DNA from: Pristiophorus japonicus
Lineage: Eukaryota
Direction of reading: 5' to 3'
DNA length: 64,000 nucleotides
Assembly (NCBI RefSeq): GCF_044704955.1
Contig: NC_091977.1
Span: forward strand, 523,280,001-523,344,000
The position numbers and the translations under genes were made by a program. Positions within the stretch are counted from its first letter, which is position 1. Each line of letters opens with the position of its first letter. This document shows positions 4,882-46,795 of the stretch, in pieces. The notes below the pieces were generated by a model that saw nothing but the letters and a program-made list of their open reading frames with translations, ran no database searches and had not been told where the DNA came from.

Positions 4882-5485
4882 TGTAATGTATGCACCTGTG
4901 AGTATGCTCACAGGCGGTTGCGCCCCCCCCCCCTTTAATAAGGGAACACTTGATTATTGGTGTCTACAAAAATAGTTGTAGAGCTATTGCTTCCGCGAGA
5001 GGTGGGCGCCGCCGGGACTGGAGTGCATCATCACCCCCGGCAACCAAATTTTAATGTCTAAAGTTTAATTTGTTTAAGTTGTCAGTTTTAGCGCCCCCAC
5101 CCCCTTTTAGCCAGGGGGCACTTGTATAATGTGTTTTAGTACCCTCTAAAAAAAGAAAACAAAAAAAAAAAGGAGGCACTTGAAAAGTTTTTGGAGTGTG
5201 CCCCTGCCCGCCCCTTTAATCAGGGGGCACTTGATTATTTGTTTTCTACAAAAATAGTTGCAGAGCTGTTGCATTGTGAGTAGATTAGCCAGTCACGTGA
5301 TGTTCACAAGTCTCAATAAAACCATGGTCTAGGTCATCCACAATGAGGTATGCAGTTGTGAGTCTAGTGGATGAACAGGTAATGTATAGTGTGATTGTTA
5401 AACCTTTAATAAACCAACTAGTTCTTAATAGCAATGTGTTGCTATGAATTCTTAAGCAAAGAACCCATGAAGCAAATGCATTACA
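4882..5485 (+). mobile_element. Solo LTR (TGTAATG...CATTACA) carrying nested LINE insertions
   Basis: Same family as 7231-7482, with AATAAA; interrupted at 4915-5256. Confidence 0.8.
4915..5256 (+). mobile_element. Two tandem 5'-truncated L1/Tx1-like LINE 3' ends
   Basis: ORF2 C-terminus-like FRERWAPPGLECIITPGNQILMSKV* at 4991-5068. Both inserts end tctacaaaaata followed by gttgYagagctRttgc. Confidence 0.65.
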
Positions 5486-5921: not shown

Positions 5922-7007
5922 AAAAAAAAACCTCTACACCCAGCCTTTCAACAATATCCCCTCCGAATGACTTCCTTTCTGGCTCAGTGCCTGTTTTCAT
6001 TATGCCTATTTTCATTATGCCTATTTATGAAGCACTTTGGGATTCTTTTGATATTAAAGGCACTGTATAAATGCAAGTTGTTGTGGCAGGTTCAAGCCCC
6101 AGTGCTCATTCATGCTGAGACACAAGCTGTTAATATAGCGTTAAGGCTCCCAATGGAACAAATGTGGTGGCAGAACTTTATCCATCTCACTGCATCACAA
6201 ACATACTTTTATGGAACACCATGGACGTTGATGGCATGCTGGACAGTCTCACCCTGCCACCTCAAAAATGGAAATGAGTGGTGCAAAGAGCATATAGTAG
6301 CATATCAGAATGCTGCTATAGTGCACTGCAGCAACTTGCCACGGCTTCTTCGGCAGCACCTCCCAAACCCTCCACCTCTACCCCTCGAAGGACAAGGGCA
6401 GCAGGTGCATAAGAACACCACCACCTCCAAGTTCCCCTCCAAGTCACACGCCATCCTGACTTGGAAATAAATCGCCATTCCTTCATCGATGCCGGGACAA
6501 AATCTTAGAACTCTCTCCCTAATAGCACTGTTGGAGTACCTTCACCACACGGACTGCAGTGGTTCAAGAAGGCGGCTCAGCATCACCTTCTCGAGGGCAA
6601 TTAGTGATGGGCAATAAACGCTGGCCTTGCCAATGATGCCCACATCCCGGAACAAATTAAAAAAAAAGAATGGTAGGCTATGGGTTTGCTCTTTGCAATC
6701 TCCCTAGAGTGTAAGGAATCTTGGTTGTGCTGCCAAGGGGAGGCACTGATGCTTCCACACAAAGATTGGTGATTTGAAGGCATTGTTATACCATCCATCA
6801 GCACCTGCCTTTTGACTGGAGAGTGCTCTGTGACTTGGCCAAACTTAGGGAGAAGTGCAAGATAAAACAAAAGTGATGGGGAGGGAAAAAAGTATTCGGG
6901 AGAACAACACTAAACACAAAAAAATTAACATTGAAGAATTAGATTAATTGAATAGTCACTTTTTATTCTCCGATTGCCCTCAATTGCGATTTGATAGCTT
7001 GAATTAG

Positions 7008-7625
7008 GAACATAAGAACTGGAGGAGGCCATTCAACTCCTCTCGCTTGTTCCATCATTGAGATCATGGCTGATCTGTACCTCAACTCCATTTACCCAAC
7101 TTAGCTCCATATCCCTTGATACCCTTAACCTAACAAATATCTATCGATCACAATATTAAAAGCTCCAATTAACCTAGCAACCCCAGCATATTGGGACAGT
7201 GAATTCCAGATTTCTATTACTCTTCGTGTGTGTAATGTATGCATCTAGGTTTGTAGAGTTTAGTGTGGCTTAGCCAGTCATGTGATGTTCACAAGATTCA
7301 ATAAAACCGCAGTCAGTTGGGTCTAGGTTATCTACGATGAGGTATGCAGTTATGAGCCTGGTGGATGAACTGGTAATGTGTAGTGTGATTATTAAATCTT
7401 TGCTATTAAGAACAAGTTGGTTTATTCACAATGTGTTGCTATGAATTCTTCAGTAAAGAACCTATGAAGCAAATACATTACAGTGTGAAAAATTGCTCCC
7501 CGATGTCCCTCCTGAATGGCCTGGCTCGTTCTGGATTCCCCCACCAGAGGAAATAATTTCTCTGTATTAACTCTATCGAATCCTTTTAACATTTTAAACA
7601 CCTCGATCAGATCACCCTTTAATCT
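7008..7625 (-). mobile_element. CR1 LINE 3' fragment hosting a solo LTR
   Basis: gaacataagaa tail repeat and CR1 3' UTR motifs shared with other copies in the window. Confidence 0.75.
7231..7482 (+). mobile_element. Solo LTR with 5-bp TSD GTGTG
   Basis: tgtaatgtat...atacattaca terminal inverted repeat; gtgtg at 7226-7230 and 7483-7487. Confidence 0.88.
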
Positions 7626-8559: not shown

Positions 8560-8945
8560 AACATATGAGTAGTAGGAGGCCATATGGCCCCTCGAGCCTG
8601 CTACACCATTCAATAAGATCATGGCTGATCATCGACCTCAACTACACTTTCCCGTTCGATCTCTATATCCCTCGATTCCAAAAATCTACCTATCGCAGCC
8701 TTGAATATACTCCCACTCAGCCCTCTGGGGTAGAGAAATCCAAAAGATTCACAACACTCCGAGTGAAGAAATTGCTCTTCATCTCTGTCTTGCCTGGCCT
8801 ACTCCTTATCCCCTCAGCATTTATCCTGTCAATCCCCTTCAGAATTTTGTGTTTCAATGAGATTACCTCCCATTCTTCTAAACTCCAGAAAGGAGAGGCC
8901 CATTTTACACAATCTCTCATCTTAAGGCAGCCCTCTCATCCAAGG
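8560..8945 (-). mobile_element. CR1 LINE 3' fragment
   Basis: KILKGIDR..AE and NFFTRSVVNL remnants of the CR1 ORF2 C-terminus. Confidence 0.75.
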
Positions 8946-10490: not shown

Positions 10491-11687
10491 TTCTGAGTAT
10501 TTTGTTTTTTTCCAAATCTGTAAATTCATTTCTGTTATGTTCTGCCCTGCAATTTAATGGAGATGACATAGGATAGGGTTGCAATTAATTACTCTGGCAG
10601 CTCTTTCACACCTCACCCACATCTATTCATGCGCGAGTCTAGACAGTGAGCACTGCCAAGCTTTTTAACCATGGCAGCATTGTAATCGAGATCAACATTG
10701 CCCTCATTGAATATCCTACATCTTTGCACTATCTAGGTCAGGGTCACTCGATAGTAATCAGGAACAGGAGTAATTGATGATGTGATGCATTTACCTACTG
10801 AATCATGCAGGAACACACCACTTATGTTTTTAAAAAAAAAGTATGGTACTAGTGCGTGTATATATATATTTTTTTTTCCTGGGCGTAAAATGGACGCAAA
10901 ACATACCAGTTTAGCAATGGGACAGTTTGTGCCCAATCTGAGCAAGCATTGATCCCACTAATTGGGGTGGGTTTTAACATTTGGGTGGCACACCCAGATG
11001 GCAAAGGGTGGGGTTGCTGGAGCAGCAGAGACCCAGATTATTTCTGTGGGGTCTGGAGCTTCCGGCAACACAATAATGATTTCAAACTTACCTTGGCTGG
11101 GCCTTGGTTGATGTGCAACGAACACGCTCCGACCAGTTCCAACATAAATTGAGAATTTAGAAGCAACTTCTTTACCCAGAGAGTGGTGAGAATGTGGAAC
11201 TCGCTACCACAGGGAGTGGTTAAAGTGAATAATATATATGCATTTAAGGGGAGGCTAGACAAGCATACGAGGGAGAAGGGAACAGAGGGTTATGCTGATA
11301 ATTAGATGAGGTAAGAGGAGAGGAGGCTTGAGTGAAGCATAGAAGCTGGCATGGCTTGATTGGGCCAAATAGCCTGTTTCTGTACTGTATATCCTATGTA
11401 ATAAATGGGCAATCTGATATTAAAATAGCCTACATTTGAAACAAGGCAGATGATCAACTCATCCAGCATAAGACACCTTTTCAAAATGTCGCTGGCCTCT
11501 TTGGTGTTAATCGGTAACGCTACTGACCCTACTTTGAGCTGTTATATCCCATTAATGGCAGGCGATAGATGTCAAAATTGACCTCCTGAAAGAGTGAGGG
11601 CCAATTTTTCAGGTGTCTCCAAAACAGCCGCGAGGCCCCATTAATATGTTAATTAGGGCCCCAACACCTGTTGAGCCTTTGGGGAAA

Positions 11688-12345
11688 TAAGAACATAAGA
11701 ATTAGGAACAGGAGTAGGCCATCGAACCCCTCGAGCCTGCTCCACCATTCAACAAGATCATGGCTGATCTGGCCGTGGACTCAGCTCCACTTACCCGCCC
11801 GCTCCCCATAACCCTTAATGGTTAAAAATCTATCTGTGATTTGAATACATTCAACAAGCTAGCCTCAACTGCTTCCTTGGGCAGAGAATTCCACAGATTC
11901 ACAACCCTCTGGGAGAAGAAATTCCTTCTCAACTCGGTTTTAAATTGGCTCCACTGTATTTTGAGGCTGTGCCCCTAATTCTAGTCTCGCCGACCAGTGG
12001 AAACAACCTCTCTGCTTCTATCTTGTCTATCCCTTTCATTATTTTACATTTTTCTGTAAGATCACCCCTCATCCTTCTGAACTCCAGTTTACTCAATCTA
12101 TCATAAGGTAACCCTCTCATCTCCGGAATCAGCCTCGTGAATCGTCTCTGTACCCCCTCCAAAGCTAGTATATCCTTCCTTAAGGAAGGTGACCAAAACT
12201 GCACGCAGTACTCCAGGTGCGGCCTCACCAATACCCTGTACAGTTGCAGCAGGACCTCCCTGCTTTTGTACTCCATCCCTCTCGCAATGAAGGCCAACAT
12301 TCCATTCGCCTTCCTGATTACCTGCTGCACCTGCAAACTAACTAA
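11688..12345 (-). mobile_element. Young CR1 LINE 3' end
   Basis: ORF 11929-12375: KANGMLAFI...LVRPHLEYCVQFWSP...VQRRFTRLIP; very similar to 46110-46795. Confidence 0.92.
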
Positions 12346-13884
12346 ATTAGTGCTCCCACCCACCCTTTCCTTCAACGACTATCTGTGACAGGGACTGTGG
12401 TTCTCGTGTTGGACTGTTCAGCCACCAAAGGACTGACTTTTAGAGTGGAAGCAAGTCTTCGATTCCGAGGGACTGCCTATGATGATGACGGCGTGCTCGA
12501 TGTGGAGGGTCAAGTGTCAGGCCTGCCTTGCTCAGGGTTCTTCAGCCACCGGCTAAACGTACTCTTGCTGTGGAGCCAGAACACAAAGGTTCTTTCCCTC
12601 CCTCCCTCCCTCCCCCCACCCCCGACTACTCAGGTATCATGATAGCCCACTCCAACCCCCTTAAAAGGGCCACTATCAGCAAGGCAGACAACCCAAAATT
12701 GGATTCACCAGTCAGGCAATCTGCCTGGTGAGGTGCAACCTGCTTGCCCCAAGCCAGCAGACGAGGCCCAAGGATCCTTTGACTGCACTTGCTTATTGTG
12801 CAGCCCCAAGGCTAGGCTCAGAAATGGGCCGAGGCAAACTTTTACCCATATTTTAGTCTCAACTGCTGCAGAGACAAAAGGAAGAGTTTGGATAACAGAA
12901 ATGCAAAAACTGAGGTTTACAAACCAAAGAACATGAAACTAAAGTAAGATTTGTAAATTGAACTGCCGGTTACTACAGGCAGCGATGAATAAAAAGACAG
13001 AATTGCTACTTTAACTATGAATTTTGCAAATAAATTATCCAAAATATAAAAAGTTTGAATTCTCCACAGCTTAAAAATGTGCACTCTCTACAAACACTAA
13101 CATAGCTACCTGTCCCATGAAACCAATAAAAATCCACCACCAGTTTTATTTTGCATCATAAATATTTAATACGTCAGTTACATGTGGGAAAACATTTCAC
13201 TTAATTTAGTTACTGACTTGTGGCTTCGTCTACCCTACACTATTTAAATGGCAAATTGAATTGCATGTATTTTTAATGTGCATTAGAACAGTTTTCAAGC
13301 TAAGAGCATTAAAACACTGAGCACGCAGTAGACACTAAAATGAGATGACTTATGCTCAAGATTTAGCCTTGGCTACAATTGGGATTCTTCAAGTTTGCAA
13401 GTGTTTCTAGTGTCAGCAAGATCGCACGAAGGATAGGAAAATGGTTTGAGGAGCAGAACGAGTCATTCACTGGTCAAATGCAGCATCAAGGGGCTTGGTC
13501 AAGGACCGATATCAAAGATGTGGCGTTATGAATAAGCTCAACATGGTTACAAAAAAGGATGTGATATGGAGGGGCCGGGGAGGGAGAAGAGCAAATACTT
13601 GACAGAAAATAGTATTTTATTTTCTGTCACTTTTGCATCTTAGAATGTCATGAATAAAGCAAGGAAGGTAACCTGCTTCCCATGCCTCGGAGAATGTTAC
13701 ACTTAACACTTAATCTGGCTCAGGATGCTATTCGGTGATCTGATTTTTCTATACATCATTGTGATATATCGAATGACAACCGCTTTCAGAATATACATAG
13801 GGTGTTAGGATCTCAGGGTCTCCCACTACACCCCATGTACCCACAGGAAACCAAAATAGCAAATATTGTTATATCCGACAATTC

Positions 13885-14425
13885 TAGAGTACTGTGTACA
13901 GTTTTGGTCTCCTTATTTAAAGATATACTTGCATTGGAGGCAGTTCAGAGAAGGTTCACTAGGTTGATTCCTGAGATGAAGGGGTTGTCTTATGTAGAAA
14001 GGTTTAGCCTAAACTTATTGGAGTTTAGAAGAATGAGAGGTGATCTTATTGAAACATAAGATTCTGAGGGAGCTTGACGGGATAGATGCTGAGAGGATGT
14101 TTCCTCTTGTTAGGGAATCTAGAACTAGGGGGCAGGGTTTCAGAATAAGGGGTCGCCCATTTAAAATGGAGACGAGGAGGAATTTCTTCTTTGAGGGTTG
14201 TGAATCTGTGGAATTCTCTACCCCAGAGAGCTGTGGAGGCTGGGTCATTGAATATATTTAAGGTGGAGATAGATAGATTTTTGAACAATAGGGGAGTCAA
14301 GGGTTATGAAGAGCGGGCAAGAAAGTGGAGTTGAAGCCAAGATCAGATCAGCCATGATCTTATTGAATGGTAGAGCAGGCTCAAGGGGCCAAATGGCCTT
14401 ATCTTGCTCCTATTTCTTACGTCCT
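13885..14425 (+). mobile_element. CR1 LINE 3' end
   Basis: DILALEAVQRRFTRLIPEMKGLSY...RRMRGDLIET. Confidence 0.88.
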
Positions 14426-15937
14426 TTATTCCTTTAAATAGTCACTGAGCAACATCCTGAAAATGGTCTCGACTAATGAAAATATTCAAGTATTACTAAT
14501 TTATTTTGGGCTTCTGCAAAAGGAGAGAAGGTGGAAGGAAGACCTGATTTCTGTGCATTCTGGCACCCGAGCAATTATAAGGAAGAGATCGGGGGCCCGA
14601 CCAGTCAAATCTATTGTGAGGAATTTGCATATTGCAAACAGTAAATCACAAGTTTTTTTTTAAACTTTAGATAACCACAGCTCCACTTTGTGGCCACTGT
14701 GCAAAGAGCATTTACTAACCTGTGCAACCACTAAAAATGTTATACCACACAAGCAACTTAATTTAGATATGGTATACAGATTGAGTATTTTATCTAATCC
14801 TGATTTTCAGTTATGAGAAACAGGTTTTGCTGGAGGTCTCCAACTAGCATGTAGTTAAAGCCTTAAACTCACTGACAATTAACATACAGCGAGAAGAATT
14901 TATGGTAACTGGGGAACAAACACCCGGCATTCATTAGAATTTCCCTTGCCCATTTACTTTCCATGAGACTCTACACTGGAAGTTGTGGTGCTGTAAGTGG
15001 GGGATTGAGATGGCACCCTTTACAGGGCATCAGTGGTCTGTGTAAATACAGTCTGCAACTGTATCTCCTTAACCAATCAGATCGAAGTATTGTGAATTAA
15101 ACAGTGCAGAGTCTGAACCAGGAAGTGTAAGTTAGAATAATGAATGATGTCAAATCAGGTACAGAAAGCGACAGAGGGAACGATTAGATTGAAAAATTTA
15201 AATTAAAAAAAATTAAATTAGTAGCCAATTTATCATCCCTCGCTTTACTTAAATGTAAAACTTAGATTCGCTCTCAAACACACATTACAATCAAGCATTA
15301 AAAAAAAGTGATCATAACCCTTCACAAAAAGAAAACCATAGGCAGACCTAAACTCTGCAAGGCGAGGGTGTCTGGTATATTTTGGGCTTAGTGTTTTAAG
15401 AAAGGTTCCACATATTCAAACTCGATCAACACAGTTGACAGATGATGAGACTTGGGTCAAACAGAATGGAGAAAATCAAGCAGCAAAAGTTTGAATCACT
15501 GCACCAGCTTATATGCAGGCAATATTTTGCTTCAATTATAGAAATGTCATTTTCAATTTACCTTTTGAAACTGCTGAAAGTATGGTGTAATTTGAGGTAA
15601 TAAAGCTAGCAGAGGGAAAATGGAAGTAATTTGAAATATCTGCCTGCATCACACTGCTGTTTGTGGGAGCCTGCTGTGCGCAAATTGGCTGCCACGTTTC
15701 CTACATAACAAGTGTGATTACACACCAAAAGTACTTCATTGGCTGTAAAGCGCATTGGGACATCCTGAGGTCGTGAAAGGCGCTATATAAATGAAAGTCT
15801 GTCTTTTTTTCCTTTATGGCTCTTCAAAAGACCTGGTGAAGACTCGATGTGCTGTATTATTCTACTATTCCATAAGAGTCTCTTTATAGTTTGCCAATGT
15901 CTCAATCAAATTCTGTATAGTTTACTGCAGAAACAAT

Positions 15938-45120: not shown

Positions 45121-46795
45121 TTGGGCGGTAAGAGAAGGGATAACCAGCCGTGGATAACCAAGGAAATAAAGGAGAGTATCAAATTAAAAACCAATCCGTA
45201 TAAGGTGGCCAAGGTTAGTGGGAAACTAGAAGATTGGGAAAATTTTAAACGACAGCAAAGAATGACTAAGAAAGCAAGAAAGAAAGGAAAGATAGATTAC
45301 GAAAGTAAACTTGCGCAAAACATAAAAACAGATAGTAAAAGCTTTTACAGATATATAAAACGGAAAAGTGTGACTAAAGTAAATATTGGTCCCTTAGAAG
45401 ATGAGAAGGGGGATTTAATAATGGGAAACGTGGAAATGGCTGAGACCTTAATTATTTTGCTTCGGTCTTCACAGTGGAAGACACAAAAACCATGCCAAAA
45501 ATTGCTGGTCACGGGAATGTGGCAAGGGAGGACTTTGAGATAATCACTATCACTAGGGGCTAGTGCTGGATTGGCTAATGGGACTCAAGGTAGACAAGTC
45601 CCCTGGTCTGGATGAAATGCATCCCAGGGTATTAAAAGAGATGGTGGAAGTTATAGCAGATGTATTAGCATGGATAGAGAATTGGCTGGCTAACAGAAAG
45701 CAGAGAGCAGAGTCGGGATAAATGGGTCCTTTTCGGGTTGGAAATCGGTGGTTAGTGGTGTGCCACAGGGATCGGTGCTGGGACCACAACTGTTTACAAT
45801 ATACATAGATGACCTGGAAGAGGGGACAGAGTGTAGTGTAACAAAATTTGCAGATGACACAAAGATTAGTGGGAAAGCAGGTTGTGTAGAGGACACAGAG
45901 AGGCTGCAAAGAGATTTAGATAGGTTAAGCGAATGGGCTAAGGTTTGGCAGATGGAATACAATGTCGGAAAATGTGAGGTCATCCACCTTGGGGGGGGGG
46001 GGGGGGGGGGGGGAAACAGTAAAAGGAAATATTATTTGAATGGGGAGAAATTACAACATGTTGTGGTGCAGAGGGACCTGGGGGTCCTTGTGCATGAATC
46101 CCAAAAGTTAGTTTGCAGGTGCAGCAAGTAATCAGGAAGGCGAATGGAATGTAGGCCTTCATTGCGAGAGGGATGGAGTACAAAAGCAGGGAGGTCCTGC
46201 TGCAACTGTACAGGATATTGGTGAGGCTGCACCTGGAGTACTGCGTGCAGTTTTGGTCACCTTACTTAAGGAAGGATATACTAGCCTTGGAGGGGGTACA
46301 GAGACGATTCACTCGGCTGATTCCGGAGATGAGGGGGTTACCTTATGATGATAGATTGAGTAGACTGGGTCTTTACTCGTTGGAGTTCAGAAGGATGAGG
46401 TGTGACCTTATAGAAACATTTAAAATAATGAAAGGGATAGACAAGATAGAGGCAGAGAGGTTGTTTCCACTGGTCGGGGAGACTAGAACTAGGGGGCACA
46501 GCCTCAAAATACGGGGGAGCCAATTTAAAACCGAGTTGAGAAGGAATTTCTTCTCCCAGAGGGTTGTGAATCTGTGGAATTCTCTGCCCAAGGAAGCAGG
46601 TGAGGCTAGCTCATTGAATGTATTCAAATCACAGATAGATAGATTTTTAACCAATAAGGGAATTAAGGGTTATAGGGAGCAGGCGGGTAAGTGGAGCCGA
46701 GTCCACGGCCAGATCAGCCATGATCTTTTTGAATGGCAGAGCAGGCTCAAGGGGTTAGATGGCCGACTCCTGTTCCTAATTCTTATGTTCTTATG
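45121..46795 (+). mobile_element. CR1 LINE ORF2 3' half, internally deleted
   Basis: PWITKEIK...; SGVPQGSVLGPQLFTIYIDD...KFADDTK; C-terminal ORF 46173-46826; (ttcttatg)n tail. Confidence 0.93.

Follow-up and report, generated by a model that had tools for sequence, protein, structure and literature searches.

Tx1-clade LINE insertions at one site of a Gypsy-type LTR, and sister lineages at a CR1-like LINE, in Pristiophorus japonicus

Organization of the locus

Two inserts, A and B, interrupt a Gypsy-type LTR at positions 4882-5485 of the window, the 64,000-nucleotide stretch of Pristiophorus japonicus DNA analysed here. A second LTR, unfilled, lies a short distance downstream.

4882-4914, + strand: left part of the Gypsy-type LTR including its own 8-bp hairpin (4895-4914), corresponding to the first 33 nt of the empty copies L040, L045 and L047
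4915-4920, + strand: likely remnant of the 5' target duplication, mostly deleted, by comparison with empty LTRs
4921-4976, + strand: insert A, the terminal ~56 nt of a Tx1 3' UTR, by tail identity to other genomic copies
4977-4990, + strand: target-site duplication separating inserts A and B (sequence repeat, family D19)
4991-5258, + strand: insert B, the last ~21 codons of Tx1 ORF2 and the 3' UTR, by longer copies that extend upstream into ORF2
5259-5485, + strand: duplication (3' copy), then the LTR's right part, which contains two AATAAA signals and ends TTACA
7231-7482, + strand: second solo LTR, unfilled, with a 5-bp flanking duplication, lacking ~21 nt including the hairpin

The arrangement described in the original prediction, an LTR broken by two inserts with a common tail and the same 16-mer behind each (4975-4990 and 5257-5272), is present in the sequence. 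Two inserts indeed occupy the intervals first given as 4915-4974 and 4991-5256, with bounds now refined to ~4921-4976 and 4991-5258. Dispersed copies with a readable duplication place the element's own end at AAAA(T/G)AGT, with the duplication beginning at the next T, so insert A ends at 4976 and insert B at 5258. The six bases at 4915-4920 look like a partly deleted 5' duplication, which would put the start of insert A near 4921. The hairpin that had been noted just upstream of the inserts exists, and as the three empty copies reveal, it is part of the intact LTR. The copy at 7231-7482, earlier taken for an uninterrupted relative, is unfilled but represents an imperfect empty site, because, at 252 bp, it is shorter than L047 (273 bp) and lacks the hairpin. 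The 5-bp flanks of the filled LTR differ (CAGGC vs TGGAC), whereas those of the 7231 copy match (GTGTG).

The two copies differ in the orientation of 27 nt of LTR sequence (5408-5434 in the filled copy, 7400-7426 in the 7231 copy). The neighbourhood also contains dispersed repeats, comprising LINE 3' ends and SINE-like pairs, at 3561-3705/6523-6667, 5626-5812/9830-10004, 7001-7220, 8564-8900, 11683-12216 and 13884-14432.

The full-length LTR measures ~273 bp, with the insertion site about 35 bases into it. LTR copies run TGTAA...TTACA, and many have 5-bp flanking duplications, as seen in L031, L040, L045, L047, L048, L050 and L053. Two elements, L062 and L063, possess two LTRs around an internal region in which RNase H precedes integrase (the Gypsy order), together with a purine tract and a primer-site-like motif that is a resemblance only. 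The internal region contains the Pfam domains PF17919, PF17917 and PF00665, and its homologues are K02A2.6-like (59-64%). By domain content and order, the first target is classed as a Gypsy/Ty3 LTR retrotransposon, in line with the type originally proposed for the LTR.

The inserts derive from a Tx1-clade LINE

Searching the 5.9-Gb genome with insert B yielded 42 scored matches from 2,926 candidates. In longer copies the sequence continues upstream into an ORF2 that has a cysteine-histidine motif, as the ORF2-like C-terminus previously noticed in insert B had implied; read from 4991, the C-terminus of the ORF2 type is FRERWAPPGLECIITPGNQIL, and the ORF2 stop position of the longer copies is missing from insert B. 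Insert A is 88-91% identical to the tails of other genomic copies and 86% identical to insert B. A search with the endonuclease returned 150 scored matches from 13,266 candidates, several of which have open frames of about 1,300 aa. Sister copies encode a ~700-aa ORF1 and a 1,299-aa EN-RT ORF2, copies with an intact ORF2 are present, and the LTR-located full-length copies share 88-92% DNA identity with a sister copy over ORF1-ORF2.

The best named transposon match of L069, a CR1-located sister with intact ORF2, is the Xenopus TX1 149-kDa protein. Xenopus laevis Tx1L (UniRef YTX2, P0026), likewise a two-ORF APE-type LINE, is identical at 625 of 1,293 aligned ORF2 residues (48%), with 61.6% identity in the RT. 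In an RT tree of 19 rows with a CR1-like outgroup, built without mammalian L1 or named Keno/Kibi/Koshi rows, the element groups with Tx1L, turtle and sturgeon sequences with support of 94/97. RVT_1 scored above the Pfam cut-off, Exo_endo_phos and zf-RVT scored below it on fragments, and L1-type endonuclease structures were matched at E 6e-20. The Tx1 membership that had been suggested thus holds for natural long copies by protein match, ORF2 identity and RT tree, and at the level of sequence both inserts are confirmed as 5'-truncated 3' ends of a Tx1-clade LINE.

Site specificity at the LTR

Exact 34-mers, which count unmutated junctions only, identified 2,512 filled and 974 empty junctions genome-wide, and Tx1 occupies about 72% of the exactly matching LTR sites; reversed-pattern controls gave 0 matches. 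Among the best 30 of the 42 insert-B matches, 23 are followed by the target motif (by eye), and for 19 there is LTR sequence no more than 1.5 kb away. A general tail pattern has 5,967 matches. The 100 listed, all on contig C1 and including tandem neighbours, comprise 68 on target and 32 dispersed or unclear (by eye), with none at the CR1-like site described below; 29 of those 32 still carry G at +2. In a separate set of 30 LTR loci, found with an empty copy and hence by a query that favours empty sites, 12 are filled by eye.

Full-length 5' junctions begin at one LTR position in 20/20 fetched loci, often in arrays of up to four inserts. Target duplications span 13-15 bp, 5' truncation points vary among copies, and many tail variants occupy one site. 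Kojima (2015) calls a family target-specific when more than 20% of flanks are of one repeat type and the 5'-truncated insertions are independent; the corresponding figures here are 23/30, 68/100 and, for the younger CR1 lineage, 85/100, which place the element in this class. We regard site specificity as nearly certain. The 3' flanks are strongly enriched for the target motif, and the filled and empty counts support the original proposal of a LINE family that repeatedly integrates into the LTR of another retrotransposon.

Two further configurations were observed. One insert-B copy (L007/L154) occupies another position of this LTR family, again one starting TGT, and has a duplication of ~15 bp. 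The dispersed insert-B copy L024 is flanked by a duplication of unusual length, some 80-100 bp.

A second target in a CR1-like LINE

Sister lineages in the same genome are inserted antisense at one homologous site, within the same codons, of two CR1-like LINE subfamilies. The flank of this second target encodes the C-terminal part of an APE-RT ORF2 for which database names are generic; we tentatively take it to be CR1-like from its domain layout and motifs. The ORF2 of the CR1-like element is interrupted by the insertions. From the 150 endonuclease matches, 20 long copies were picked for long open frames, a choice that favours young copies: none lies in the LTR, 19 end at the CR1-like site or in tandem behind the motif, and the remaining one (L071) has only its 5' flank at the CR1-like site. 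The youngest tail has 382 matches, and the 100 listed are divided into 85 CR1-like, 13 dispersed, 2 uninterpretable and 0 LTR. Exact insert-B tails were found at the CR1-like site in 0 of 22 cases.

One tail, with 34 matches, is common to both targets, and an upstream SNP separates them: among 30 fetched loci, it sorts correctly 17/17 informative loci of the LTR type and 12/12 of the CR1 type. Tail type thus predicts the target, with one exception found, L217, which carries an LTR-type tail at the CR1-like site (1/15 such junctions). A hairpin of the LTR type is not evident by eye at the CR1-like sites of the 20 long copies, and the LTR hairpin was rejected as a general targeting signal on this ground. 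An empty site of the younger CR1-like target occurs in the window itself at 46090-46102 (- strand).

Six full-length copies (L067, L068, L072, L073, L076 and L224) have in common a loss of ~30 bp of the CR1-like target at the 5' junction, which suggests that flank sequence on the RNA 5' end guides joining.

The lineages are about 93-95% identical in ORF2 DNA and use three different sites. In a midpoint-rooted copy tree, for which the sampling of CR1-located copies is biased to young ones, the CR1-targeting copies form a 97/94 clade (including 2 LTR copies) nested among LTR-targeting copies and with shorter tips; the endonuclease tree gave little resolution. A 14-mer resembling the LTR duplication stands behind the CR1 flank at the 5' end of 18/18 CR1-located full-length copies shown. 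Because the CR1 copies are nested, have shorter branches and retain a remnant of the LTR duplication, the target very likely switched, on sequence grounds, from the LTR to the CR1-like LINE, and did so recently.

RNA end and seed bases

At dispersed sites, the pre-insertion sequence matches the target of the copy's own lineage for ~4 bases and falls to background from about +5/+6. Base +2 is G in 14/16 hand-curated dispersed sites of the LTR lineage, C in 8/8 and T in 9/11 of those of the two CR1 lineages (Fisher p 6e-5 and 6e-6). These counts omit copies in which no duplication was found (L018, L024, L146, L148, L170, L186 and L216), tandem rows without a duplication (L029, L030, L161, L215 and L220), and copies on target by their 5' flank (L003, L026, L190, L224, L229 and L239). 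In junction register, the three targets have only +1 in common. The complement of the ~4 matching bases is the primer end. In L1, the four terminal bases weigh most in priming, and primer pairing and endonuclease preference overlap (PMC3649969); annealing of target-like RNA ends is described for SART1Bm and R1Bm (PMC7265360).

In the hand-curated set, the 3' copy of the duplication showed no significant conversion to the lineage's own target (7 vs 2, p 0.09), which counts against a purely RNA-based model, and the count at on-target rows is 10 vs 8; an automated direction test (12 vs 4, p 0.04) was discarded, as on-target and tandem rows had been included. Junction windows from mutually dependent copies fold more than 1 kcal/mol better than shuffled tails in 35/65 LTR, 15/19 younger-CR1 and 0/9 older-CR1 cases. 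The reported complementarity of tail and target can therefore form a fold at many junctions of the LTR type and the young CR1 type, though not at those of the older one, and a tail-target hairpin is unsupported as a universal feature.

These junctions are best explained, and in our judgement probably produced, by independent 5'-truncated Tx1 copies that arise through target-primed reverse transcription, with a read-through RNA end pairing with the primer. A fairly relaxed APE endonuclease would nick the bottom strand, and the RNA, whose 3' end is predicted to extend past the element into sequence flanking its parent copy, would pair through that end with the ~4 terminal bases of the nicked strand. 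The ensuing duplication would regenerate the target site, so arrays could grow. With the LTR as first target, a parent copy landing in an abundant CR1-like repeat would have founded the new-target lineages. That read-through pairing sets priming appears moderately likely from the junction sequences; that it is also the main determinant of lineage targets is doubtful. Since four bases cannot supply an on-target preference of about 70-85% of listed copies, this preference is probably shared between protein recognition and longer RNA pairing. The further idea of an RNA-programmed, self-reprogramming LINE that inherits its target from the parent flank with little or no protein change is put forward tentatively, as an unlikely one.

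Protein differences and alternative explanations

Protein alone could set the target, through a few substitutions in the endonuclease or the C-terminal part of ORF2, and the match between tail and target would then be a by-product; we consider this quite possible, at somewhat less than an even chance. Comparison of 15 LTR-located with 7 older and 15 younger CR1-located copies revealed 0 strictly separating endonuclease residues, with majority differences from the LTR type at 3/240 positions in the older and 7/240 in the younger CR1 lineage. L120, L123, L129, L130, L137 and L138, whose own 3' ends are unclear, were left out, as were L070, with different targets at its ends, and L071. Across the whole ORF2, majority residues differ at 22 and 41 positions in the two CR1 lineages, and the younger is strictly set apart by four C-terminal positions, as protein control would allow; no strict difference distinguishes the 15 LTR-located from the 7 older CR1-located copies, which argues against it. 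Endonuclease position 201, a majority difference, aligns with L1 I204, a residue with a described role in the endonuclease (PMC1950540); this and the four strict positions speak against a purely RNA-based choice. However, three residues characteristic of the younger CR1 lineage occur in LTR-located L132. The majority hairpin loop of the endonuclease is identical across lineages, with an arginine variant in 8/19 LTR-located copies. This loop is shorter than in L1, three residues shorter than in Tx1L, and lacks the RDGH tip of the latter, which also weighs against control by protein alone.

The 4-base lineage preference is equally expected from endonuclease recognition. According to PMC1919474, the Tx1L, TRAS1 and R1Bm endonucleases recognise about 10 bp, and the Tx1L enzyme is described as nicking almost only its own target (PMC1950540); against such recognition here, only +1 is common to the three targets. 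Dispersed sites without a partial match past about +5 and the L217 tail at the target of the other lineage also favour the protein, as does the presence of pre-tRNA and 5S sequences at the same sites, although always with ~11 nt of LINE tail where inspected.

Multiplication of one or few LINE insertions by a replicating Gypsy or CR1-like element is very improbable: both targets are abundant mobile elements, but the varying truncation points largely refute such passive copying, many tails occur at one site, array contents differ, only one of the two LTRs of L062 is filled, and the two LTRs of L063 hold different inserts. That the inserts belong to a variant form of the LTR or arose by local tandem duplication, to which the 86% resemblance of A to the end of B might point, can be dismissed almost completely, given that B continues into the 1,299-aa EN-RT ORF2 in longer copies, A resembles other loci more than it does B, separate duplications flank the dispersed copies, insert lengths range from ~12 nt to ~7.1 kb, and L062 has a filled 5' LTR and an empty 3' LTR.

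Chimeric and minimal inserts

At the CR1-like site, a pre-tRNA with its genomic trailer is joined to just the terminal ~11 nt of the Tx1 tail (L161:1558-1665; L241-L260). All 20 inspected loci lie at this site, which is biased by a query that included that flank. The pre-tRNA is presumably Asp. The 20 loci have a common trailer and differ in junction and LINE tail variant. A SINE with one master was rejected, as these 20 loci have no fixed head-tail junction; the variable junctions fit independent chimeras, formed by repeated template switching or RNA ligation. At the target sites of L055 (the LTR site), L173, L235 and L251, Tx1 tails or 5' ends are fused to copies of 5S rRNA and to a run of tRNA-like sequences, two of which pass Rfam. 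Minimal inserts in L043, L078 and G000:C2:50671448 retain ~12 nt of tail with a duplication on either side; they equal the tail piece of the tRNA chimeras in length and may mark a pause in reverse transcription.

Relation to known systems

Tx1L inserts into the transposable element Tx1D (PMC4494074, PMC1950540); its target is thus a DNA transposon, in contrast to the Gypsy LTR and CR1-like LINE used here. Targeting of LTR retrotransposons by Tx1 is already reported: some crocodilian Tx1 families prefer Mariner or Harbinger, and two, Tx1-8_Crp and Tx1-4_AMi, prefer LTR retrotransposons (Kojima 2015, PMC4494074). Together with Tx1-Mar and Tx1-9_AMi, these families resemble the present one in having transposon targets, related families with different targets and small-RNA-headed elements at the same sites, and co-transcription with the flank has been proposed for them (PMC4494074). 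The main text of that paper describes no LINE target and no analysis of near-identical-ORF2 lineages, relic 5' duplication or dispersed-site seed. In the literature searched, with Repbase and subscription journals outside its scope, we found no Tx1 with a LINE target, no switch between near-identical lineages and no relic duplication, a weak form of absence; within the same scope, no report of shark Tx1 targets was found beyond the named papers.

The proposed pairing of the RNA 3' end with the nicked primer parallels R1Bm and SART1Bm annealing and the L1 snap-velcro model (PMC7265360, PMC3649969). In those models the last four bases matter most, and accurate priming by R1Bm needs downstream target sequence. 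There, as described, pairing refines priming at a protein-chosen site, whereas here it covaries with a target change among sisters.

How site-specific LINEs change targets is generally deduced from distant families, with proteins that differ at hundreds of positions. In the present lineages, the candidate differences amount to a handful of residues and a few RNA bases, which makes the choice between protein and RNA testable, a question relevant to retrotransposon evolution and to gene insertion tools built on LINEs.
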